From NCBI RefSeq assembly GCF_963506605.1, contig NC_083288.1, forward strand, positions 29,326,001-29,390,000: a stretch of DNA of 64,000 nt. Direction: 5' to 3'. Shown piece by piece: positions 776 to 56,500 of this stretch; the first letter of the stretch is position 1; each line of letters begins with the position of its first letter. The notes beneath the pieces were generated by a model, which saw only the letters and a program-made list of their open reading frames with translations, did not search any database and was not told where the DNA came from. This DNA comes from Zootoca vivipara. Its lineage: Eukaryota. The translations under genes were made by a program, and so were the position numbers.

Positions 776-2862
776 GGAAGTCTGGAAGGGTAAACAACCA
801 AACGAAGGAGCTCCATCGATGACAACCAACTGAAGCTCACCCCAGGGTTCCTGCTGGGTCATGGCAGCAAGCAGACTTTGGATGAGATCCAGACCTGCAG
901 ATTCCTCTAACGGAATACCCTTGTACCTGGAGGGGAAACTGATGGCTGTACCTCTCTTCCACGACATCACAATAAGCCCATGCCCAAAGGCCACACGAGC
1001 CCCATGCTCGCTGCCAATACCTTCACACTTTCAATCTTCCAATCTTTCAAACCTCTAACGATCTTGTCCATCCACACATCATTTCCACCATCGGAAAGAA
1101 GCAAACCATCAGCCCGAAACAGGGCTCCCTCACTGAAGGGAATACCAGGGTGGTGTATCACTCTGCCACCCAGCGCCAACACCTTGTTTGACACTTCAGG
1201 GTCAACATGCTTTCTGGTTCTGTTGGCGGCAGCTGGGCATGAACTATTGCGCCAAACCTGATGCACCAGGAACTGCGACCAAAATATTGTGGTATCTAGG
1301 AGCGCTGCCGCCAGCTCATCCTAGTCCTTCTTAATGCAAGTCCTCAAGTTCATGCCCTTCAGCAGTGGCAAGTCATTTTCGCCCACCTGCACAACCAACG
1401 CAGAAGGCGGGCCCCAAGTGGCCACCCGAGCCTTCGCCAGCAGTAAAAATTCTTTCCAGCGCATCCCACGTTTGGACACCGATGAAATGTTGACTTGAGC
1501 AGGTATGCCGAGCTGGCGCCCCAAGCCAGATTCCACTGCTCACACACTGGGCCAATGCATGATGCTGTGACCCACGAACCACATGTGCAACTCCGGCATC
1601 ACTGAAACAAAGGAAAAGACAAAACATGTTAGGAGGTGGATTACATGCTACCGGTACTTGCTTTTCCGGATGTTTTCTTTATAGGCATTAGACCTCACCG
1701 GTCCAAGCTTTTTTTCCTGCCCACTGAAAGGCCCCAATGAACTGCTGTCGTAGCGATGCCAATCCTGAAAGAATGGGCAGTAAATTCCAGTGCTGGCAAG
1801 CCACAGGCCGTGATAGCCTTCCACACAACCCTGGTGAATAGATGCCTTGCTAAAGGGATTCCATCCTCATGAATCAAGAACGGGTGAACTCCAGGAGGCC
1901 TGATCTGTAAATACCTCCGGCTGTCTTTTACAGGGCAGGGACCTCCATATGCCGTTGCAGGCAAATTAAGCAGGGCCCCCTTATCCCCTTTGGTCTGAGT
2001 TTTACCAACTAATCCGGACCACCAATTCTGCCTCTCCCAAATATATGTCCTCTAAGTGCAGACCCCTAGGAACTCCCCCACGGACCTCCTCAAAAACAAC
2101 CTCACCCACTCTGAGCGCTCCAAAAATTGCCAAAGTATAAGCGGCAGAGAACAACCGTGCCTCATACTGGGACCAGCGAACAGATCTTAGTTTTTTGTAA
2201 ATTTTACATAATAGGTCAAAGGTGGCAGGCCTGTGACCAACACCAGAAGATGGTTGAAGTCTATGCCAGCCCTCCAGAGCCTTCCGGAGCACAAAAGCTG
2301 CACACAGATCATGAGCAAACAGGGATTTGCTGAAAAAAAGAAATGGCAGCAGAGTGAATTTTAAGAGTCTTAGCCACACGCTGAAGCTGATATAAGTGTG
2401 CCATGTATTGCAAAACCTGATCTGTAGAAGGGGGGTGATCTGCAGCGATAGATAATTTTTGCACGTGGAATGCTATATAATCAGCCCAGGCTTTCTTGTA
2501 AGCTCTAAATGTGGAGGGGGCCAAGGAAGCGACTACTCCCTGCATAACTATGTGCTTCCAAGGCTCCATAGGTACACTGGAAAAGGCTATGGCAACTGCT
2601 GTGCATCCGGTGCCAAAGATCTAAAGCGGTCCATCTGAAAGCAAGACAGAGAATCCAGGTGAATCCCCAGGAACGCACCACCACCTTTTATATGCCCCCG
2701 CAATCACACCACCAATCTCTGATTGGCAAATAGGCCATGGTGTGATCATGGGAGCATCACGTGGGCTGGGCTCAGTCTCCCACCCCCTCAAGGATAGTGG
2801 GGTGTGTGTGTCTTGGGCCCACATGCAAGGCGGACCCTCAGTTAGGAGGATCCCATTCATCT
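771..2862 (-). mobile_element. Internally deleted Ngaro/DIRS-like tyrosine-recombinase retrotransposon (family A)
   Basis: RNase H tail, YR N-terminus (SLAPSTFRAY), GALRVGE, HSFRIG; downstream SGNH-like ORF pieces WFVGHS / GMRW / VGENDL / FRADG.LLS..GN; TATA-like GCATATAAAAG near the 5' end. Confidence 0.88.
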
Positions 2863-4439
2863 AGCAATAAGCGTAAATGAATTCAGTTGAGCTTATTTTG
2901 CGCAAACATTATTTGGATTGCAGGAAAAAAGTGAACAGATCAGATTAATTTTATTTGTATCAACTCATCAGATTACCACACATCATTTTATCCAAAAAAT
3001 ATTCCAAAACATTTATTGGCATTGACAAATGTATTTTCAAAACAAAAACAAAAAACAAAAACAAAAACACACAACCCCTTCTTCTTGACTTCCCACCCCT
3101 CCTTTTCATCATTTTTTTAATTAACTTTTTTTTACAATACTGTACATATGTCTTTATTCTCTGAACTTCACTATCATTAGATCTTTCAGTAATACAATCC
3201 TGACTGCAACTTCATGTATGGGTGATACTTTGAAAGATAATCTATGATTGGCCTCAATTCCTCCTTATGCACTTCCTCATTATGTCCTCTTAGTCTGGTG
3301 GTTAATTTTTGCCATTTCATCATAGTCTATTAGTTTCATAAGCCAATTCTCCTTCCTTGGTAATCCTTCTTCTTTCCACTTCTGTGCATATAAAGTAGTA
3401 GCTGCTGTTGTTGCATATAAAAATTAAATTGGTCAGTTTTGGGGGGGACTTCCATTCCTGTTATCCTAGCAAAAATGCTTCGGTTGTTGTTGTTGTGGTT
3501 GTTTTAAAAGAAGGAATTAACAGTTTAAACATCCTTTTCAATTCATTATATATCATTTCCCAAAAACCCTTTGGCTTTTTCCCAGGACCACCACCAACTG
3601 ATAAGATGACCCTTCCTCCTGTTGGTATTTCCGGCACATATTTGGAGCATTTTAATACATTTTTTCTAACTTATCACAGTTCTAAGCACCATCTATACAT
3701 TATTTTCATATTACATGAACTAAATTTCAGATATACTTTCCAAAGTCTCTCCCATGTGGCCATTGCTCACCAGGTTTTGATTTTATACCACAGCAAGAAA
3801 ACATGTCTATAAACTCCCCATTGAGGATGCGTTCACATATCTTTGTGTGCAAGCGGATCCCAGGGGGCTGACGCATATGTTTAAAATTAGACACTAATGT
3901 GCCTCCCTGGAGTCTAAGCCCTACTCACCGCAAGGGGCTATGACACCATTGTCACGCCTGTGCCTCTTTTTTCTACTCTTCCAGACCGATTTTGGGAGAC
4001 CAGGCAATTTAGCCATTGTGATCCAGTACCCTTGATCTGGTCCTCATACTCCATGTTCAAGTAGTCATACCTACGTGAGGAATCCGATGAGTCCTGTCTG
4101 GACTTACGTCCTCTTCTCTTGGTTCTGTGGGGTCTTTCTCTCTTGCTCTGAGGCCTATGCAGTTCAGGGCTCAAAGAATTGTCAGATAGGTTAGAGGTGG
4201 AAGGAGACTTACAACTGCGCCGAGCCATCCGTGAACGGCAGTAGGGAGACCATGATCTCACTGTGCGTTTACTGTCCCTAGAGACTGAGCAGGTAGAATA
4301 TTCACTTGAATCAGAGTTATGTTTGAAGCCATGTGAAGGCCTGCTGTGATGCCATGCACCACTCTGGGGAAGAAATGCAACAGGAGTATATAGCCACCTG
4401 GTGAAGCCCAGAAAAGGCCCATTGGCTTGGCTTGGAATT

Positions 4440-7470: not shown

Positions 7471-7856
7471 TTACAGCACTGCCTCTTGGATGTTCTTGTT
7501 TCTGAAGCTATAGATAATTATGGGATTCAGTAATGGTGGCAAAACAGTATACAGTACAGAAGGGAGCAAATCTTTAGAGGAAAACACTTTAGTTTTTGTG
7601 TATGAAAACACAGCTCTGCTAATAAATAAAGAAAATAGTCAGGTGGGGGTACAGCATAGCTGCCAAGTTTTCCCTTTTCTCGCGAGGAAGCCTATTCAGC
7701 ATAAGGGAAAATCCCTTAAAATAAGGGATAACTTGGCAGCTATGGGGTACAGGTAGAGAATGCTTTATATCTACCTTGAACAGATGGGATTCCCAGCACA
7801 GCAGAGAACATGTAGCCATAGGAAACAAAGATGGACCCTCCAGAAAATGAATCTAT
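7471..7856 (-). pseudogene. Degenerate OR 3'-half fragment (TM5-TM7), interrupted by a MITE
   Basis: Similar to the 3' half of the adjacent 8081-9016 gene (DSF..G.IFVSYG...PPLLNPIIYSFRNK) with indels. Confidence 0.85.
7655..7744. mobile_element. hAT-type MITE (CATAGCTGCCAAG TIRs), left-arm-specific
   Basis: Terminal inverted repeats; 8-bp TSD GGGTACAG; absent near 39921 and 49892. Confidence 0.88.
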
Positions 7857-8080
7857 TCAGGAATACTGCACCAAGAATCTTAGGTAAAAAAAACCCATCA
7901 AAATTTGCAAAATTTGAAATGTTCCTAATATAAACATTTTAAATGCAAATCTGCCCAATACACTTCTATTTGCAACACACAATTACATAAGAAAATTCAT
8001 TTTTATCGTATTTTCACTGACATTTGCATTCTTATGCAATGCACAGGACTTGTGATGTGTATGAGACACCCTGCAAGAAA

Positions 8081-9016
8081 TCATGCTAGGAGATTTCTAA
8101 TTATTTCCGGTACATTCAACACAGCCTCTTGGATGTCTTTGTTCCTAAAGCTATAAATAACGGGATTCAGTAATGGTGGCAAAACATTATACAATACAGC
8201 AGAGAGCAAATCCATTGTTGTAGAGGAAAGCTCTTTAGGTCTCATGTATGAAAACACAGCTGTGATGATGAATAAAGAAAAGACAGTCAGGTGGGGGATG
8301 CAGGTAGAGAAAGCTTTATATCTGCCTTGAACAGATGGGATTCTCAGCACAGCAGAGAAGATGTAGCCATAGGAAACAAAGATGAACCCTCCACAAAATG
8401 AATCTACTATAATCCCAATGGCAAAAATCAAAATTTGGTTAAGCTTTGTGTCAGTACAAGAAATCTTTAGCAACTGAGGGACATCACAGAAATACTGCCC
8501 AATAATATTGGACCCACAGAAATCTAGCCTGAAAGTGATAATGGTATGTAACGATGAATGGATTGGGGTGCTTATCCAGGAAGCAGCTGCCATTTGGATG
8601 CAGGCATCCCAGTTCATGATTAGATCATACTGCAGAGGATGGCAGATTGCAACATAGCGATCATAAGCCATGATTGTGAGCAAGGCAAGCTCAGAACCTC
8701 CCAAAGTGAAAACTAAGAAAACCTGTGCGACACAGCCAGCAAAGGAAATCCTTTTGTCATCTGACAAAGAAGCAGCTATGGATTTGGGGATTGTGGTTGA
8801 GATGTAGCAAATGTCTGATAATGATAGGTTGACCAGAAAGAAGTACATAGGAGTGTGCAGTTTGTGGTTCAGGGCAACAGCAATGATGATGAGGAAATTT
8901 CCCACTAAGGCTATTAAATAAATGGAAAGAAATATCACAAGGTAAAACAGTTCTTCTTCTCGGTCACTGGAAAACCCCATCAGAAGAAATTCTGTCACTG
9001 TAGACTGGTTGGCCAT
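8081..9016 (-). CDS. Olfactory receptor, family 14-like, 311 aa
   Basis: Intact ORF with NQS glycosylation site, LHTPMYFFL, MAYDRYVAICHPLQY, FCD, KAFSTC.PHL, PPLLNPVIYSFRNK; splice acceptor near 9093. Confidence 0.96.
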   Translation of the reverse strand: MANQSTVTEFLLMGFSSDREEELFYLVIFLSIYLIALVGNFLIIIAVALNHKLHTPMYFFLVNLSLSDICYISTTIPKSIAASLSDDKRISFAGCVAQVFLVFTLGGSELALLTIMAYDRYVAICHPLQYDLIMNWDACIQMAAASWISTPIHSSLHTIITFRLDFCGSNIIGQYFCDVPQLLKISCTDTKLNQILIFAIGIIVDSFCGGFIFVSYGYIFSAVLRIPSVQGRYKAFSTCIPHLTVFSLFIITAVFSYMRPKELSSTTMDLLSAVLYNVLPPLLNPVIYSFRNKDIQEAVLNVPEIIRNLLA

Positions 9017-41654: not shown

Positions 41655-44600
41655 CCACGGCCGCATTCTTCAATGGCAGGTGCTCCGCGAAGCCCAGCTG
41701 GTCAGCGGGCGTCCAGGAGAAGGCCGCGATGCGGCCTGCGGCAGCGGTGGCCTGTGGGGGGGCGGCAGGGCCTCCCCCGGCCGCAGTGTCATATTTTTTT
41801 TAAAAAAACAGGCTTTGATAGGGCCCATTTCGGCGGCGGCCGCTCCAACAAGAGAAGGCCTAACAAATAAGGCTTTAAAAATAAATAAATAAATATCCAT
41901 CCTCTTTTGCAATAAATAAATAAATAATTTAAAAATAAAATAAAAATAAAAATTGTCAAGCCGCTTTTGCACCTGCTCTTTGCTATTGCTGCTGTCAATG
42001 GACAGCCTCAGCTTACAGTAGCCCAGCTGGGCTGCGTGTGTCGTGCTTTGCATTGCATTGTGAGGGTTGGACTAGATGACCTCCGGGGTCCCTTCCGACT
42101 CCAGGCCCGATGGGCTCATGTGGTGTGTTCCTTGATTTCAGTCGGCATGTATTAATCTTCATTTTCTTCACACAGTTTAGCGTGTGTGTGCGCAGTGAGG
42201 TTGGTTGGTTCTGTCCTGAGTTTATGTTCTTTAGCAGGCAAAACAAACAAACAAATAAACCAACAAACAGCTAATTCAATAGGGGTAATAAATTTAATCA
42301 GCCTGAAATTCAAGAGTGACTGTAGCAGTGGTAGTCGTCCTTGGATCACAAGTGGTAGTCGCTTTAGATCACAAGTCATGGCCACCGGTCAAAAAGAAAG
42401 CTCCCCTCCCCGTGTGGTTGGGGGTGCACCCAAAGCCACAGCAAGGGGCACCCTGAGTAATGCGGTTAAGGCAGCCAAGCGAATAACAAAAAAGGGCTTT
42501 ATCTTCGGGGAGGAAGGTTCCTCCCATGAAACTGGTACTCAGCAAGAAAAAGGTGAGGGAGGATCAATTGGTAGGCCCCTCCACTTCTGAGGCTAGGCCC
42601 TACAGGGCCTCCCCTAAGGGAAAATGACCCATTTCCCCAGTTGAGTCGCTTTCAGACAGCAACTCCTCATTGGCTCGCCTGGCACGCCTGACAGCCGGGG
42701 GGTAGCCCCCCATCATCACATAAGGGTGACAAAGCAGAAAAAGGAGGATATAAAGATTTGGATCACATTCCTGCAGGAGTATAATGGGGTCTCATTCTGG
42801 CAAGAAGTTGTTGACCCAGGGGTGGAACTCCAGGTCCATTCGGATGCCTCTGGCCGCCATGGCTTCGGTGTGTTCTTCAGGGGCCGCTGGTGTGCGCACC
42901 CGTGGCCGCCTGCCTGGCATACAGCGGGCATCACTCGCGATCAAACGTTTCTTGAGTTCTTCCCTATTCTAGTTGCCATACGCCTCTGGGGAACCCGTTT
43001 CGCAAATTCCAGGGTATGTTTCTGGTCTGACAATCAAGCGGTGGTAAGAATCATATCCCGGCAGTCCCCTAAGTCTGCCCGGGCTATCAGGCTGCTGCGC
43101 CTATTTGTGCTTGAGTGCCTGAGGCACAATATTTCCTTCACAGCCCGCTTCATACCTTGTCTCAATAACAACATTGCTGACGCATTATCTCGTTTCAAGA
43201 TGGAGCATTTCCACAAGCTGGCACCAGATGCAGCCCAGACCCCGGACGCCTTTCCAGATGAGCTGTGGGAGATTGGAAGCGAGAAGGGAACCAGGGAGTA
43301 TTGTCAGCCTTAGCCCCATCCAGTAGACGTTCCTATTCCAGGGCCTGGGACGCCTTTGGGCGTTTTCGTGGCTCCAAAACACGGCGCGCAACCGAGCGGG
43401 AATGTCACAGGCGCGGTAGCGGCTACTCTAGAGTAAAGACTCCTCATGACATTGCCTTTTCATGCTTTTATTCACTGCAAGCTATTTACAGTGCAGAGTC
43501 AGTACTATGTACATGTTGTCAGTCTTGGTCAGAACCTCTGAATGGAGATTCCCGTGTTTTCCTCCAACAAAGTAGCCTGGGAACATTGAATCTCCGCCCC
43601 CGGCGCTTCTTGTGCAATTCCGGGGTCGGCGGGAGCGGTCTTCTGGTTGCTCTTTCCCTGCTTCCACAGGGAAGTACTTCAATTCCTAGTTCTCCTGAAG
43701 CACAGGGGCCTGGCCATAAAAACTCTAATGCTTTATAGGGCAGCTATATCCTTCTTTTGCAAATTCCTTTGTTGGCCGGATCCATGCAACACATTTCACG
43801 TCAAGAAGTTGCTGGCGGGCTGGCGTCACATCATCCCTCCGCGCCAGGATGGCAGAAAGCCCATTACCATCGACATCCTGAATTTAATTTGGTAAAAAAA
43901 TTACCAGAGATTTGATGGTCAAATTTGGGGACATGTCTCTTTCGAGCAGCATTCTGCCTGGCCTTCTTTGGGCCTATGCGTATCGGAGAGTGTTTGGCAA
44001 CCGGGGCACGTCAAGCAGGGTTGAGTGATTCAGATGTCAAGTTCTCCGGGGACACTGTCAATATCAAAATTCGGTCCTCCAAAACAGATCAGCTGTGAAA
44101 AAGTTGATGCTCACTCCAACAGGACAAGAGGGTCCCTGCCCCTATAGGGACTCTCGCAGTTTTTACAGGGTCCGGCCAGAATGCAGGGGGCCTTTCTTCA
44201 TTCATGCTAACATGTGGCCTTTATCGCGGTTTCAATTTACAGCAGTCTTACGCAAAGTCCTAGCAGCCTGTGGAGCAGATCCCCAAGGATACTCTGGACA
44301 TTCCTTCCGAATCGGGGCTGCCACTTCAGCAGCAGTCCAGGGTTGGTACCCAGCCCGCATCAAGACATTAGGGCATTGGCGCTCAGCTGCGTACAAGAGC
44401 TACATTCGCCCTGGCTCCTCTTCCTTAACGCTTACAATTTAACTTTTTTGCAGGTTTGCCCTTCATGAAGATCTGGGTGGTTGGGCACAGCTTCGTTCAT
44501 TGGGTGGCGGAACATGCCCCGCCACAAAAAGGGGGTCTTCACCTCAACATTCACCCCAATATACGCATTTATCGGATGGGCCACCGGGGCATGCGGTGGT

Positions 44601-45600
44601 CAGGCATGATGCCCTCGTTTAGTAAGGCCGCAGCGATGCCTGCCCCCCCGGGAGTACTGGTGGTACACCTGGGAATAATGATTGGTTGAGCAAAAAGGCA
44701 TTGCCCTTACCCCTGCGGCTAGGGCAGATATAGAGAAGCTGCACACCTTATACCCAACAATGGCAATAGGCTGGTCCAATCTAATCCCCCGCCTGTGTTG
44801 AAGGGGGGTTTCCAATCCTTCTCGCATTAACTACGCGATGCAAAAAATCAACAGGGCTATGCACAACACCATGAGGAAAATTGGGGGATTCTTTATCCCA
44901 CACCCCACCATTAGGGCGGATGCGGCGGGCATGTTCAGAGCTGATGGGGTGCATCTGACACCACTTGGGAATGACCTCTGGCTAAATGATGTGTGGCAGG
45001 CCCATCATGTTCTGATGTCAGAGTACGGATCATGGTCACTTGGTCGTGGGGCTTGGCGGCGAGGCCCTTAAGGGCCTCGGGTGGCAGTTTTAGACCTTGG
45101 GAAGGTTTCCTTTGGTCTATCTTCAAGTTGGGTGGGATGCAATCAGGCTCCCTTCCTATGCGGCGGCGTTGCAGGGGCCCATTTAAAAGGGCAAAATCGG
45201 GAGTCCCTGGCCCTGGAGCGGCGGCTTGTAGGTCAAACTCACGGATGGGGTTAGTGGAAGGGCATGGTCTGTAAGTTTGCGCTTTACAGTCCCCTCTCAC
45301 TGGCCTCATCAACCTGCATATCCTCAGACAGAGGGACTGAGAGGGTTACCTGCCAAGGCCTGGGCCAGGTTTCCCACTTCCTGAATTCCTGACTCTTGAC
45401 TCTTTATTGGGGAAGGGGGTAGGCACCACAGACAGGACTTAGTGTGTGTGTACGAAATATCCGCCCTCCCCTCAGGTGGGTGAGGTTTGTGACACCGTGC
45501 GGGGCTTACCTGGCTGGGGCCACCCACCTGAGCGCCTTGGCCTATGACCCACCACCTGGCCAGGTAGGACAAAGGATGCCTGGCCGGAGGGGGCGGAGTA
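41655..45600 (+). mobile_element. Degenerate Ngaro/DIRS-like retrotransposon (family B): RNase H, tyrosine recombinase and SGNH-hydrolase-like ORF; RT absent
   Basis: 42726-43313 DIRS-type RNase H (SDASG..GFG, FLEFFPI, SDNQAVV, NNIADALSR); YR motifs SLAPSS/ALAPSS, SKTDQ, GHSFRIGAAT, LGHWRS.AY..YIR; 44456-45071 WVVGHS, GMRW, VHLG, DGVHL. Confidence 0.9.
43403..43668 (-). mobile_element. Solo LTR inserted in the recombinase ORF
   Basis: TGT...ACA termini; 5-bp TSD GGGAA (43398-43402 / 43669-43673); removal restores the YR frame (TERE-VLQFL). Confidence 0.8.
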
Positions 45601-48087
45601 GGGAAATAATGGTAATATATAGACAATTGCATCACTTGTTTTGTAAATCAGGATTTGCAAATCCTCATGGTGATGTTCTCCAAGGAGGGACTCTCTGAAA
45701 CACTACAGAAAGCAGGAAGGCTCAATTGATCCCTCTTTGTCACAAACTATAAATCATCTACTAAAGACTGCACTTCAACATTTTGACACTTTCGTCTTCC
45801 AGACAAAGACAGAGGTGAGTAGAATCCTATTAGCTCATCCTAAGTGCAGACTAGGGCATATATTTCAGTCCTTAAAAGACTGAAAAAAGGTTTAATACAG
45901 CGGTGGGATTAATGAAGACATGGTTATTCTATGAAACAAATAGGTAGTATTTATAGGTAAGAGATAATAAAGTGGTGTTTCATAATTCTGGGAATCTAAT
46001 CAATAATTCTGAGCTCTCACCAAAGCCAAATGATTTTTCATTGATGCTAGGTAGTGTGTGATTTGCTTTTTAAAAATAAAGTAGAAGCATTATGGTTCGC
46101 AAAAACAAAACATCATAGATAAGGTCCTTTATGCAACCACACCAACGAGAATTTGCTTATTTACATCTAATAGCAAGGTTGCCCTTATGAGCTATAGTTA
46201 GGATTTGATTCTGCTTTCTCATTCTTGATTCAACATGAAACCAATATTTGCACTTCATGGTGGTTTACCTTTTCATTGTTTTGCTAACATTACCATGTTG
46301 TCTGTTTGTTGCTATTTACATCTAATAGCAAGGTTGCCCTTATGATCTATGGATCTAGGATTTGATTCTGCTTTCTCATTCTTGATTCAACATGAAACCA
46401 AGATAGGTCTTTGCTGAGATGCTCCCCATGCTCCCTGCCAACTCTAAAATTCTATTAGTACTGTACTGGGGAGAATGAATGATGTCAGTTGAATGTCAGT
46501 TGAATGTCTACTGCTGGCATCACTCATTACCTCATATACAATCACTCATTCTATAATACACAAACACACACATACAAGTTCACTTTGGTTGCTTTATGTT
46601 GGCTTGAGGATTAGGTGCAAATTTTGATGGATTTTTTTACCTAGGATACTTGGTGCAGTATTCCTAAATAGATTCATTTTGTGGAGGGTCCATCTTTGTT
46701 TCCTATGGCTACATGTTCTCTGCTGTACTGGGAATCCTTGCCATTGTATTTCTAACTATCAGGAAATTGAAAAAGGGGCCCCCTCCATTTGCTGCCTGGC
46801 AGAGAGCCACTCATTTTTTGTTACCTTAATGGCCAATTACCTTACCAGGAAGCTATCCAGGCTATTCTAGGGATTTGCATCCTTGCTTAGATTTTAACAC
46901 ATTTCCTCCAAGGAACAGAGGGTGGCATTCACAGTTCATCTTTCCCAATTTTAACCTCATGACAGTCCTGTAAAGTAGCTTAGCCTGATAGAACTGGTGC
47001 TTGACCATTGAGTAGGGATTTCAACCTGTATTGCCTAGTCCTAGTCCAACACTCTAACCACTACAATAAATACAATAGTTTATTATTATATAGACAATTG
47101 CATCACTTGTGGTTTAAATTAGGACTTGCAAATCATTAAAGTGAGGTTCTCCTAAGGAGTGACTCTCTGAAACACTACAGAAATTTAATGATATTCTCCA
47201 AGGGGTGACTCTCTGAAACACTACAGACAGCAGAGAAGCTCATTTTTTTCCCTTCTTGTCATAAAGTATATATATTCAAATAAAGACTGCACTCCAGAAT
47301 TCTGGCCCTTCTTCTTCCAGACTAAAATAGAGGTGAGTGGAAACCCATTTGTTCATCCTCAGAGCATACTAGAACTTGGAAGGTACTTATATTTCAGTTC
47401 TGAAAAGACCTCAAAATGTTTAATACAGTAGTAAGATTAATGTAGACATTATTATTCTGTGATAAAAATAGATAACATTTATAGGTAACAGAGGATAATA
47501 ACGTGATGTTTCAAAATTCTTGTATTTGGACTTACCGGTAAACCATGAGCTCTCATAAAAGCCACATGATATTTCAAAAATGCTAGGTGGTGTGAGATCT
47601 GCATTTTAAAAAATAAAGTAAAAGCATTATGGTTCACAAAACAACAACCTAGTTAAGTTCCTTTACGTAACCATACCCCAGGGAGGATATTATTTTATTG
47701 TACATCTAATAACAAGGTTGCTCTTAAGAGCTATACTGTAGTTAGGAGTTGATTCTGCTTTCTCATTCTTGATTCAACATGAAAGCAAGATGGGTCTTTG
47801 CTGAGTTGCACCTCATGCTCCCTTTCCAAGTATAAAATTGTATGAGTACTGTACTGGGGAGAATGAATGATGTCAGTTGAATGTCTACTGCTGGCATCAC
47901 TCATTGCCTCATATTGAGAAAGGGGGCAAACCCCACATACAATTGCCTGCATATTCCCTCAGCCACCAGACTTTCATTAACTCCTTTCTAATTTTAGGTG
48001 TTACAAACACCTCTGCTGGAGCGGCTAAAACACAATAACAGAACTACTCTTCAAGAAATTGTTTGATGGAAATATTAAAGAATTAAG

Positions 48088-50577: not shown

Positions 50578-53429
50578 GGAACATGCTATAGTGTGGGCTA
50601 AAAATTCATCTTAAAATATATAGATAGATTAGAATGAAGCTCTTGCTCATATTATGTACCTCCTGTGGCTTCGGAAATGAAAGAAGTGCTCACAAAACAT
50701 TTTTATGTACAAAACTAATAGGGGGTGAGTCATGACAAAGAACTGAAAAATGTGTATTTTACCAGAGCAGTGTGTACAGAAAGTATACAAAATGGATGCA
50801 ATTTAAATGCAGAGATTTTGTTCATTTAAAATAGGAAAAAAAGAGGATGGACTTGACCTATCACTGATTATGTGCATTTATTTCAAATAAAGAAAAATGA
50901 AAGGACTGCACCCTCACTCATTTAAAGGTAAAGTAATAATACTCAACCAAATGTAGAGATTTTTCACAAGTTTCATATTTGCTTTCATTTTTCACCTTCA
51001 TTTTTACGCAATCTATCTAGAATTTGGCAACTATGCTGCCCTGTGAGAGAATACTCCTGAATTTGCCAATTGGGTGGAAAACACTTAAGTTACAGGCAGC
51101 AGAAAACACGATGGCTCTCCACAAATACAAAAACAAGAGCTAATACAATTTAGAAAATCAGCTAAGCTGTTTTTGAAGAGTGGGAAAGTAGATATTCAAT
51201 TTTCGTTTGCATCTTGAATTCCTTTTCACAAGCAAAATAGTGCAAAAACTGGTGAAAATCAGATGATTGGCCGCTATGTCTTTAAATCCTATAAATGTGT
51301 TGAGACTCCCATTTACTGTGCACTCACTGTGTTTCCTTTGTTGGTTTTTTTAATTCAGGTTCTTATAATGCTATCCAAAACACATATCTGTACCTTTGAA
51401 ATAACATATGGCTGTTTTATGTATTGCTTCATGCCACCCAAAAGCTCTGAGCCGTGCAAGATCTCAAAGGTTCCAGGGTTTGTTTTTCTCTTGGAATGAG
51501 GTGTAGTAGAGACTGTGTGGTCTATAGGCTATATGGTTTATTTAAACATATATACAACCTGAGTCTACATTGCAGGGTTCACAGCATTATCACCCCAAGA
51601 GGGTCTTGCTTCTCTCATAGCTGCAGCTTTGAATATAAACAGAAATCAAGCATCTTTCTGTATTTCCAGCTTCCCAGCCTGCTTCATCCAGTTTCCAGCT
51701 CCAATTATCCCACCCTCAACTCTTGCCATTGTATTTCTAACTATCAGGAAGTTGAAGGAGGGGCCCCACCCATTTGCTACCCGGCAGAGAGCCTCTCCTT
51801 TTTTGTTACCTTAATGGCCAATTCCCATACCAGGGAGCTAGCCGGGCTATTCTAGGAATGCTCCACACATCAATGGGGGGGGAATTTTGCATGGTCACAC
51901 ACAGCCCCCTGACCCCAGAGGGCGACTCCGTGGTAGTTCGGTGCTGGCACCGCCTTCCCAGGTAGGATGCCAGGGGTCTCGGCCTGCCCAAGCCTAGCAT
52001 CCAATCTGTTGTCCCTGGGGAGTGTTGGCCCTTCCCCCATGTATCTCCATTCCTTGGCCCCCACCCTTGGAGAAGGAACTGTCAGCTTCTGGGTTCTATT
52101 TCCCAGCATGCTCTTTTGTCTGAGCCCTCTGTTGTCCCTGGGGAGTGTTGTCCCCTCCTTCCTGTATCTCCATACATTGGACCCTGCGCGTGCATCATGA
52201 ACATTTTTTATATAAGCAGAAGTTATTATTGTTTAATTTCATTTTTTGGGTTGTCATTTATTTTGGTGGGTATTGTATGACTTGGGCGTTGATGTGTGTT
52301 TTGTGGTGGTTTTTTGGTTATCTGGATTTTCTAATTTTGGAGTAGGTGTTTTGAATGTAGGGTGTGGTTTTGGTTTTAACACACATGCCTTTCTCAGACG
52401 GGCAATAGTGTGTTAAAGAGAAGGCACTCTGCGGAGAAGGCACTTTGCGTATGGTCAGAGGCACCCTCCACGCGGAATGTGGGTACCTTAGAATCGAGCA
52501 AAAAAGAAAAAGTGCTGCAAGGGTGGGGAGGGAAAGGTCCCAATCGAGGAGGAAGGTGGGCTGACATCGGATGAGTTGATTATGGTACTGTATTTAAAAA
52601 GTCATTTGTGCCTATTGGTTTAGTACTGAGTTGAACCAATGTGGCTATGGGTATATGGCTCATTAATAAATTATTTAAAGAGCATCGTTAATTAGTTAGA
52701 TGGTGAATGTTTAATTAGTGTACTATTAATTCCAAGCCAAGCCAATGGGCCTTTTCTGGGCTTTGCCAGGTGGCTATATACTCCTGTTGCATTTCTTCCC
52801 CAGAGTGGTGCATGGCATCACAGCAGGCCTCCACATGGCTTCAAACATAACTCTGATTCAAGTGAATATTCTACCTGCTCAGTCTCTAGGAACAGTAGGG
52901 AAAGAACTATTGCCTGCCTGAGAAAGAGTCAAGAGCGGGTCGAGAAACGCACAGTGAGATCATGGTCTCCCTACTGCTGTTCACGGATGGCTCGGCGCAG
53001 TTGTAGGTCTCCTTCCACCTCTAACCTATCTGACAATTCTTTGAGCCCTGAACTGCATAGGCCTCAGAGCAAGAGAGAAAGACCCCACAGAACCAAGAGA
53101 AGAGGACGTAAGTCTAGACAGGACTCATCGGATTCCTCACGTAGGTCTGACTACTTGAACATGGAGTGTGAGGACCAGATCAAGGGTACTGGATCACAAT
53201 GGCTAAATTGTCTGGTCTCCCAAAATGGGACGGGAAAAGTAGAAAAAAGAGGCACAGGCGTGACAATGGTTTTCATAGCCCCTTGCGGTGAGGAGGGCTT
53301 AGACTCCAGGGAGGCACATTAGTGTCTAATTTTAAACATATGTGTCAGCCCCCTGGGATCCGCTTGCACACAAAGATATGTGAGCGCATCCTCAATGGGG
53401 AGTTTATAGACATGTTTTCTTGCTGTGGT

Positions 53430-53960
53430 ATAAAATCAAAACCTGGTAAGCAATGACCACATGGGAGAGACTTTGGAAAGTATATCTGAAATTTAGTTCA
53501 TGTTATATGAAAATAATGTATAGATGGTGCTTAAAACTGTAATAAGTTAGCAAAAATGTATTAAAAGGCTCCAAATATGTGCCGGAAATACCAACAGGAG
53601 GAAGGGTCATCTTATCACATGTTGGTGGTCCTGGGAAAAAGCCAAAGGGTTTTTGGGAAATGATATATAATGAATTGAAAAGGATGTTTAAACTGTTAAT
53701 GCCTTTAAAAAAAAAAAACCACAACAACAACAATCGAAGCATTTTTGCTACGATAACAGGAATGGAAGTCCCCCCAAAAACTGACAAATTTATTTCCATA
53801 TGCAACAACAGCAGCTACAACTTTATATGCACAGAAGTGGAAAAAAGAAGGATTACCAAGGAAGGAGAATTGGCTTATGAAACTAATAGACTATGATGAA
53901 ATGGCAAAAATTTACCACCAGACTAAGAGGACATAATGAGGAAGTGCATAAGGAGGAATT
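53430..53960 (+). mobile_element. L1-type LINE ORF2 3' fragment (mirror copy at ~3260-3800, minus strand)
   Basis: Degenerate cysteine-rich C-terminal region (..HM.WS...KGFWEMIYNEL..). Confidence 0.65.
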
Positions 53961-54354: not shown

Positions 54355-56500
54355 TAGATAAATGGGATAATGGGATCCTCCTAACTGAGGGTCCGCCTTG
54401 CATGTGGGCCCAAGGCACCCCCCCACACTATCCTTGAGGGGGTGGGAGACTGAGCCCAGCCCACGTGATGCTCCCATGATCACGCCATGGCCTATTGGCC
54501 AATCAGGGATCGGTGGTGTGATTGCGGGGGCATATAAAAGGTGGTGGTGCGTTTCTGGGGATTCACCTGGATTCTCTGTCTAGGGCCGGCGCGCTCACTT
54601 AGGCTCAATCCCTGTTTGCCCATGATCTGTGTGCAGCTTTTGTGCTCCGGAAGGCTCTGGAGGGCTGGCATAGACTTCAACCATCTTCTGGTGTTGGCCA
54701 CAGGCCTGCTACCTTTGACCTTTTATGTAAAATTTACAAAAAACTAAGATCTGTTTGCTGGTCCCAGTATGAGGCACGGTTGTTCTCTGCCGCTTATTCT
54801 ATGGCAATTTTTGGAGCTCAGAGTGGGTGAGGTTGTTTTTGAGGAGGTCCGTGGAGGAGTTCCTAGGGGTCTGCACTTAGAGGACATATATTTGGGAGAG
54901 GCAGAATTGGTGGTCCGGATTAGTTGGTAAAACTCAGACCAAAGGGGATAAGGGGGCCCTGCTTAATTTGTCTGCAACGGCGTATGGAGGTCCCTGCCCT
55001 GTAAAAGACAGCCGGAGGTATTTACAGATCAGGCCTCCTGGAGTTCACCCGTTCTTGATTCATGAGGACGGAAACCCTTTAGCAAGGCATCTATTCACCA
55101 GGGTTGTGTGGAAGGCTATCACGGCCTGTGGCTTGCCAGCACTGGAATTTACTGCCCATTCTTTCAGGATTGGCGCCGCTACGACAGCAGTTCATTGGGG
55201 CCTTTCAGTGGGCAGGAAAAAAAACTTGGGCCGGTGAGATCCAATGCCTATAAAGAAAACATCCGGAAAAGCAAGTGCCGGTAGCATGTAATCCACCTCC
55301 TAACATGTTTTGTCTTTTCCTTTGTTTCAGTGCTGCCGGAGTTGCACATGTGGTTTGTGGGTCACAGCATCATGAATTGGCCCGGTGTGTGTTTTGGTCG
55401 CAGTTCCTGGTGCATCAGATGTGGCGCAATAGTTCATGCCCAGCTGCTGCCAACAGAACCAGGAAGCATGTTGACCCTGAAGTGTCAAACAAGGTGTTGG
55501 CACTGGGTGGCAGAGTAAAACACCACCCTGGTATTCCCTTCAGTGATGGAGCCCTGTTTCGGGCTGATGGTTTGCATCTTTCCGATGGCGGAAATGATGT
55601 GTGGATGGACAAGATCGTTAGAGGTTTGAAAGATTGGAAGATTGGAAGCATAGCTGCCAAGTTCGGATCGTAAAGATCCGGGATCGGCAGCGCGTGACGC
55701 AACTTCCGGTGGCGCTTCGCCCTTCTATGGGCACCAGAAAATGGTGGCGCCAGCGCCGGAAGTCGCTTCCGCGCATGACCGGAAACACGTAAAAGCGACT
55801 TCCAACGCCGGCGCCGCCATTTTCTGATGCCCATAGAAGGGCAAACCGCAACCGGAAGTCGCGTCACGCAACTTCCGGTCATGCGCGGAAGCGACTTCCG
55901 GCGCCGGCGCCGCCATTTTCTGATGCCCATAGAAGGGCAAAGCGGCACCAGAAAAATGGCCGCCGGGAAGAAGCAAATTAAAGGGACAATGCCGGGATTT
56001 TCTGCCAAACGGGAGACCGCCGGGAAAGGGTAAGAAAAAAGGGGTTTTCCCGGCGGATACGGGATACTTGGCAGCTATGATTGGAAGTGTGAGGGTATTG
56101 GCAGCGAGCATGGGGCTCGTGTGGTGGTTGGGCATGGGCTTATTGTGATGTCGTGGAAGAGACCTCAGCTTCCCCTCCAGGTACAAAGGTATTCCATTAG
56201 AGGAATCTGCAGGTCTGGATCTCATCCAAAGTCTGCTTGCTGCCATAACCCAGCAGGAACCCTGGGGTGAACTTCAGTTGGTTGTCATCGACGGAGCTCC
56301 TTCGTTTGGTTGTTTACCCTTCCAGACTTCCTGCAAGGTGGGCAGGAGTCCGATATAGTTATTGCCAATGACTAAGCCAATACCACTCACAGTGCTGTAA
56401 TCAATAAAGTTTTGGCCTACATTTTTGCCCATTAACCTTAAACTAAAATTCTGTGTCCGTGTGTATTTATTTATCCTTGGGTGTGCGCCAGGGTCTTGAC
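54355..56500 (+). mobile_element. Ngaro/DIRS-like element family A, right-arm copy with different deletions
   Basis: HSFRIGAAT, WFVGHS, FRADGLHLS; AATAAA near 56403; mirror of 771-2862. Confidence 0.87.
55649..56079. mobile_element. CpG-rich hAT-type non-autonomous element (CATAGCTGCCAAG TIRs), right-arm-specific
   Basis: TIRs; 8-bp TSD ATTGGAAG; internal inverted and tandem repeats; absent near 1035. Confidence 0.88.

Follow-up and report, generated by a model that had tools for sequence, protein, structure and literature searches.

How does a retrotransposon express genes that stand behind its reverse transcriptase and have no conserved start codon? The question arises in a window of 64,000 nucleotides from the 1.44-Gb genome of the lizard Zootoca vivipara (contig NC_083288.1, positions 29,326,001 to 29,390,000), an olfactory-receptor cluster with nested inverted segmental duplications. 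Six ORFs from the window were scanned, and all matched PF13853 (olfactory receptor); the duplications (1-64000) also copied a retrotransposon, here called family A. In this family and in a second one, family B, an SGNH hydrolase gene follows the tyrosine recombinase gene.

Element Class and Copies in the Window

Young copies of these elements have the order terminal repeat A1, leader, ORF1 (~490 to 640 aa), ORF2 (reverse transcriptase and RNase H), tyrosine recombinase, SGNH ORF, and repeats B1, A2, and, after a spacer, B2. In locus L041, A1 (123-341) is 100% identical to A2 (7882-8100), and B1 (7508-7879) is 100% identical to B2 (8399-8770). The reverse transcriptase matches PF00078 (E = 9e-11), and the RNase H end motif ADALSR is present in 35 of 35 elements; the Pfam scan returned no RNase H match. 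The recombinase carries an HSFRIG motif and matches two Pfam families slightly short of their curated cut-offs, PF00589 (E = 5e-5) and PF13495 (E = 3e-5). A Cys/His cluster is visible at the C terminus of ORF1, and Pfam zf-CCCH_10 reached an E of only 0.011, in one of two ORF1s. The four ORFs of L043 gave no methyltransferase family in the Pfam scan, and the SGNH ORF follows the recombinase. These elements belong to the Ngaro superfamily (order DIRS), with the layout of Xenopus DIRS-53_XT.

One decayed family B element lies at ~41680-45600 of the window. Its remains, all on the plus strand, begin with an acceptor in the 5' leader, upstream of ORF1 (42131-42175, AG ending at 42175; identified from sequence and shared by the young copies L043 and L046), and a 5' remnant of ORF1 (42378-42672). 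The remainder of ORF1, with the conserved donor described below, and most of the reverse transcriptase were lost in a deletion at ~42672. There follow the 3' part of ORF2, with the reverse transcriptase end and RNase H (42673-43289; 89% by tblastn to residues 443-638 of L043 ORF2), a broken recombinase ORF (43200-44442, stop at 44440-44442), the predicted SGNH 3' splice site (44420-44453) and terminal exon (44454-45071), and split direct repeats (45088-45601) comprising B1 (45088-45458) and a partial A2, recognized by blastn to L054 and L046. The SGNH exon is frameshifted near 44677 and has a premature stop; its 211-aa frame is intact in young copies. An insertion of ~266 bp (43403-43668) interrupts the recombinase.

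Family A is represented by two duplicated copies of a single decayed element, with a third copy (L134) just outside the window. The three stem from segmental duplication of one decayed insertion. The plus-strand copy retains remnants of ORF1 (52921-53444, by tblastn) and the recombinase (54624-55237), the SGNH 3' splice site (55295-55330), and an exon remnant (55331-55673) with an internal deletion at 55391/55392. Its mirror copy occupies 1040-4082 on the minus strand, with the donor position at 4075|4074, the acceptor AG ending at 1602, the SGNH exon from 1601, and an ATG at 1599-1597. The SGNH gene is frameshifted or deleted in every copy in the window, and these copies are dead.

The family B leader has features of its own. 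It contains GC-rich tandem arrays with long open frames (L043:809-2058; L046, oriented, 856-2340) that differ completely between subfamilies, a strong donor at L043:490|491, and two acceptor-like sites before the ORF1 ATG (window 42131-42175; L043:2650-2681 and 2860-2881). Together, the leader donor and the acceptor-like sites point to an intron in the 5' UTR whose splicing would take out the tandem array.

An Acceptor of Fixed Phase before the SGNH Gene

The original prediction started from the observation that both SGNH ORFs begin directly behind a splice acceptor of the same phase, and this stands. Family B has the word TTTAAC (44438-44443), a T-tract, and a CAG ending at 44453, followed by GT TTG CCC and, farther on, GGG CAC AGC; family A has CCTAAC, a pyrimidine tract, and a CAG ending at 55330, followed by TG CTG CCG. 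In both, two nucleotides precede the first full codon, which places the acceptors in phase 1.

Conservation of the acceptor among families had been named as a critical check. We examined 40 loci (L090 to L129) chosen across families from a protein search in which 150 of 903 candidates were scored. In 39 of these the start motif could be placed, which yielded 40 SGNH starts; each of the 40 is preceded by an AG that lies 29 or 26 nt from the GHS glycine, always in the same phase. A genome-wide search with the tight pattern IWxxGHSxxHW returned 423 matches, with AG at -29 in 325 and at -26 in 72; up to 397 of the 423 starts therefore have an AG at one of these positions, the two lists showing no overlap among the 200 contexts listed. 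Reversed-pattern controls gave 0 to 1 matches. Since SGNH copies are related and not independent of one another, it is divergence at the family level that matters for acceptor conservation, and the 14 family proteins are 34 to 47% identical to the first.

The pyrimidine fraction before the SGNH AG is 0.81 (46 elements), compared with 0.515 upstream of 3824 other internal YAG sites, with family B having the weakest tract (0.59 to 0.71). The branch-like site, noted together with the tract in both families of the window, is less widespread: a YTRAY word occurs in just 32 of 46 elements.

Behind the AG, the frame is open for 182 to 211 aa (46 elements). Ser12, Gly45, Asn75, Asp164, and His167 are invariant in 14 of 14 family proteins and correspond to SGNH blocks I (Ser), II (Gly), III (Asn), and V (Asp-x-x-His). 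The match to PF13472 (E = 3e-4) is below the curated cut-off, and among solved structures the Ngaro SGNH profile matches PDB 4c1b, the esterase of ZfL2-1 ORF1p, best (E = 9e-6). With dN/dS of 0.07 to 0.21 in 14 of 14 pairs, the exon is under purifying selection. Short nonautonomous derivatives consist of A1, the SGNH exon, and B1 (L056:5005-6161; L133:4474-5679), and the one in L056 retains the branch region and acceptor after its internal deletion.

A Conserved Donor within ORF1

If the SGNH exon is spliced onto ORF1, an in-frame phase-1 donor is expected there, as had been predicted; one is found at a single aligned position across families, ~3.4 kb upstream. In a scan with a donor matrix, on which all donor scores rest, phase-1 matches cluster ~3.43 kb before the GHS motif. 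One alignment column reads G|GT in 34 of 37 intact ORF1s, and the remaining 3 have CAG|GTTCGT two codons downstream with the phase unchanged. The donor-acceptor distance is 3396 to 3432 nt in 34 of 35 elements. The glycine codon at the donor is GGT in all 15 family representatives that have glycine at this position; across 17 other conserved glycine columns of ORF1, GGT accounts for 61 of 252 codons (24%), and none of those columns is invariant. Among 26 additional stretches, inspected once the donor had been predicted, the region is present in 16, of which 13 read G|GT and 3 read C|GT; the latter are the local family A copies, one duplicated dead insertion, in which the donor position on the plus strand is CAC|GTAGGT (53138-53146; the intron would start at 53141), with C at -1 where other families have G. 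Several donors are weak by this matrix, such as CAG|GTACTT (5.8) and CAG|GTTCGT (4.8). The donor follows a Lys/Arg tract (6 to 13 Lys or Arg among the preceding 30 residues, 35 elements) and precedes the conserved ORF1 core.

Three other candidates were considered and set aside. An ORF0 in the GC-rich leader repeats was dropped as an upstream exon because its donor is not common to the families; the same is true of a strong CGG|GTGAGT site in the reverse transcriptase, and an ATG in repeat A1 does not have a conserved frame as a start.

Annotated Proteins with the Junction

The predicted junction is present in annotated proteins. RefSeq isoform X2 of a Z. vivipara protein (P0015) agrees at every position with locus L100 over residues 1-207 and 209-397, and residue 208 is a glutamate composed of the G of the donor codon and the AA that follows the acceptor, across a 3421-nt intron. 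This glutamate arises only via the splice; the two L100 blocks are joined at the ORF1 donor and the SGNH acceptor. In Podarcis muralis, P0006 has the same junction in a relative of family B and reads SSDLS-G-LPTMKIWVVGHS. These and the other RefSeq proteins are gene models; RefSeq alternative isoforms usually rest on transcript alignments.

An ORF1-type N terminus is fused at the donor point in 8 of 12 longer homologues; the other 4 are a ZNF638-like host fusion and 3 frog models with low-complexity N termini. Among the best 150 of 2980 representatives, the ORF1 core occurs in 1, and pieces of recombinase or reverse transcriptase are joined to the SGNH exon in 11, which indicates that gene models sometimes take other donors. 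Models resembling host genes (P0022, P0025 to P0029, P0035, and P0037) also carry the exon: a ZNF638-like protein has one, and proteins of 1300 to 3100 aa have 2 to 6 SGNH repeats. These are possible cases of domestication.

Recombinase and ORF2

The recombinase presents a similar case. The Gln codon of the RNase H motif ADALSRFQ is CAG, after a T/C-rich run, in 35 of 35 elements examined; the corresponding site in the window copy of family B (43176-43199, plus strand) reads AAG. As an acceptor, this site is in phase 1 and open into the recombinase in 31 of 35 elements, and the recombinase frame is broken in the other 4. The first Met of the family B recombinase is residue 255 of 331. The site sits in a constrained coding motif, which makes it a weaker test of splice-site conservation. 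The ORF1 donor probably serves the recombinase too, through this acceptor within the RNase H end, a role absent from the original prediction.

No acceptor is evident for the reverse transcriptase. ORF2 lies in the +1 frame relative to ORF1 in 19 of 21 elements, with an overlap of 125 to 422 nt and no fixed Met (e.g., L043:4043-4350), making the overlap a candidate for Gag-Pol frameshifting.

RNA and Processed Copies

RNA reads were aligned from ~6% of each raw run, giving a depth of less than about 8 near the predicted sites. In this shallow sample, family B (L043; runs X9, X10, X11, and X1) had no splice joints, and the L162 family (runs X11, X9, X1, and X2) had four, none at the predicted sites. 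Sense depth in X11 on the L162 family was 3.6 to 7.4 over the SGNH exon versus 0 to 1.9 over the recombinase. An unspliced contig crosses the SGNH acceptor of a sister subfamily; contig ends near splice sites were excluded as evidence. The B1 terminal repeat of L162 (8821-9320) had a sense depth of 59 to 153 in X9 versus ~3 or less for the ORFs, an excess that points to host transcripts containing solo repeats or to short RNAs of the element.

Processed ORF1-SGNH copies were not found by a junction peptide search in which 150 of 568 candidates were scored, by two patterns covering some families, or among 45 loci screened. Two loci do bear on the acceptor. In L131, 258 nt of A1 plus leader are joined exactly to the acceptor, and L140 has a leader joined there whose final TTGAG resembles the donors of L046 and L054; both loci lack the pyrimidine tract. 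Four B-clade copies have leader donors at +261 to +271. L131 and L140 support use of the acceptor, though with a leader donor; they could also be deletions at a shared AGGT, the unspliced parents of both being absent from the loci sampled.

Other Routes to the Esterase

These loci raise the possibility that the acceptor is used mainly with a 5' leader donor or with host exons, so that the esterase would begin with a short leader-encoded stretch instead of being an ORF1 fusion. L131, the four B-clade donors, and host-gene-like models such as P0022 fit such a route, as does the in-frame ATG in L131 and L043. However, L041, L046, and L048 have no in-frame ATG, the corresponding leader window of 12 of 27 elements contains no donor with a score of at least 5.5, and the invariant ORF1 donor and P0015 would be left unexplained; we regard this route as unlikely. 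It is less probable still that the esterase comes from unspliced RNA, by its own ATG, reinitiation, or recombinase frameshift or readthrough, and that the AG is incidental. The original prediction had named translation from the nearby ATG as the result that would overturn it. That reading fails. Of the 46 elements, 7 have an in-frame ATG between the AG and the catalytic Ser, 10 have one in the open frame but only ahead of the AG, and the other 29 lack any in-frame Met up to the catalytic Ser; where family B has its ATG near the acceptor, the youngest copies carry ACG. Xenopus ORFs of this kind are described as overlapping in the available text of PMC9210276, and unspliced RNA does exist across the sister-subfamily acceptor. 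Against these stands the geometry of the site: the recombinase stop and the AG are 11 to 61 nt apart, and the SGNH frame falls in all three frames relative to the recombinase (15, 20, and 11 of 46), yet the frame behind the AG remains open. Sequence upstream of the AG thus tolerates indels and sequence downstream does not, which resembles the end of an intron.

Lastly, the sites might be kept for control at the RNA level (U1 protection, export, or decay), with the fusion protein irrelevant. The samples searched did yield neither a spliced read at these sites nor an ORF1-SGNH processed copy, but RNA-level control does not account for the phase match at both ends, for invariant catalytic residues, or for purifying selection on a gene without a conserved start, and we consider it the most improbable of the three.

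Proposed Expression Model

Our preferred reading is that the Ngaro element splices the esterase, and probably the recombinase as well, onto the front half of ORF1, and that unspliced RNA provides Gag, reverse transcriptase, and the genome; we hold this to be very probable. The phase-1 ORF1 donor would join the phase-1 SGNH acceptor, with the 3.4-kb stretch between them removed. The same donor would join the acceptor at the RNase H end for expression of the recombinase, and RNA left unspliced would supply the full ORF1 product and reverse transcriptase. That the ORF1-SGNH splice occurs in cells we infer from the two sites, their phase and conservation, the selection on the exon and its catalytic residues, and the annotated proteins with the junction. 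The central proposal of the original prediction, a hydrolase encoded by a terminal exon spliced onto a gag-like ORF, skipping reverse transcriptase, RNase H, and recombinase, thus gains support from the donor, the phase, and the annotated proteins.

The predicted fusion would be ~380 to 540 aa long: a low-complexity region with the Lys/Arg tract at its end would lead into the esterase, and neither Gag core nor zinc finger would be included. By analogy with ZfL2-1 ORF1p, we speculate that the basic tract serves in binding to RNA or the particle, and the predicted esterase in targeting the fusion to membranes.

Comparison with Other Elements

The env gene of retroviruses and gypsy elements is a 3' ORF whose message is a subgenomic RNA, spliced once so that pol is skipped. 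The Ngaro arrangement had been called env-like; this applies to the predicted expression route and not to the product, which lacks the anchor of an Env protein: 12 of 12 fusion models have no transmembrane segment, the highest 19-residue Kyte-Doolittle mean being 0.78 to 1.34. A spliced gag message is described for Ty1/Copia elements in the text available of PMC5580714 and PMC7197481. Unlike env and Copia messages, the Ngaro message would use a donor deep in ORF1, keeping ~190 to 350 codons, and the recombinase probably shares that donor.

Amphibian Ngaro-like elements resemble the lizard ones in having a gag-like ORF, reverse transcriptase and RNase H, a recombinase, an SGNH ORF, and split repeats A1...B1 A2 B2, and the hydrolase of Xenopus DIRS-53_XT and DIRS-54_XT is credited with "no proven function" (PMC9210276, available text). 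The lizard elements differ in that SGNH is a start-less terminal exon accompanied by a conserved ORF1 donor; the main text of PMC9210276 has 0 matches for "splic" or "intron." In the non-LTR element ZfL2-1, the ORF1p esterase is a phospholipid-binding domain that comes after an Arg-rich motif and a coiled coil, according to the portion of PMC3905857 available, so that an Arg-rich motif stands upstream of an SGNH domain as in the predicted Ngaro fusion. ZfL2-1 has one continuous ORF1 in which the esterase replaces other RNA-binding domains (same source), whereas in Ngaro this layout would come from splicing, beside a full Gag-like ORF1.

Capture by host genes has a precedent in the LAP2alpha exons of TMPO and ZNF451, which derive from DIRS1 ORF1 (PMC4495291, available text). 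There, an ORF of a tyrosine recombinase element with an inferred built-in acceptor was captured as a terminal host exon, and SGNH models of the P0022 type suggest likewise. The case differs in superfamily and ORF and in being host co-option rather than the element's own expression.

A full-text literature search, with older reviews, supplements, and Repbase notes outside its reach, found no description of an ORF1-SGNH splice, nor does one appear in the available text of PMC9210276, PMC3905857, PMC4495291, PMC7192593, PMC9341512, and PMC8547959. The element type and the hydrolase ORF were already known; the proposed ORF1-SGNH splice arrangement is new, as far as searched.

Implications

One tentative extension, which we think possible but rather doubtful, is an alternative-splicing programme in which Gag core, recombinase, and esterase would each receive the same ORF1 front half, such that the three might coassemble by a shared module. 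The esterase form might then tie the particle to membranes or vesicles as an envelope-free analogue of Env, converging on the layout of ZfL2-1 ORF1p.

The arrangement proposed here offers an expression route for hydrolase and recombinase ORFs that have no conserved start codon, and it would define the actual protein behind an enzyme described as having no proven function. Annotation of such elements as sets of overlapping ORFs would miss their products. The built-in acceptor would also account for the ease with which host genes capture the SGNH exon.
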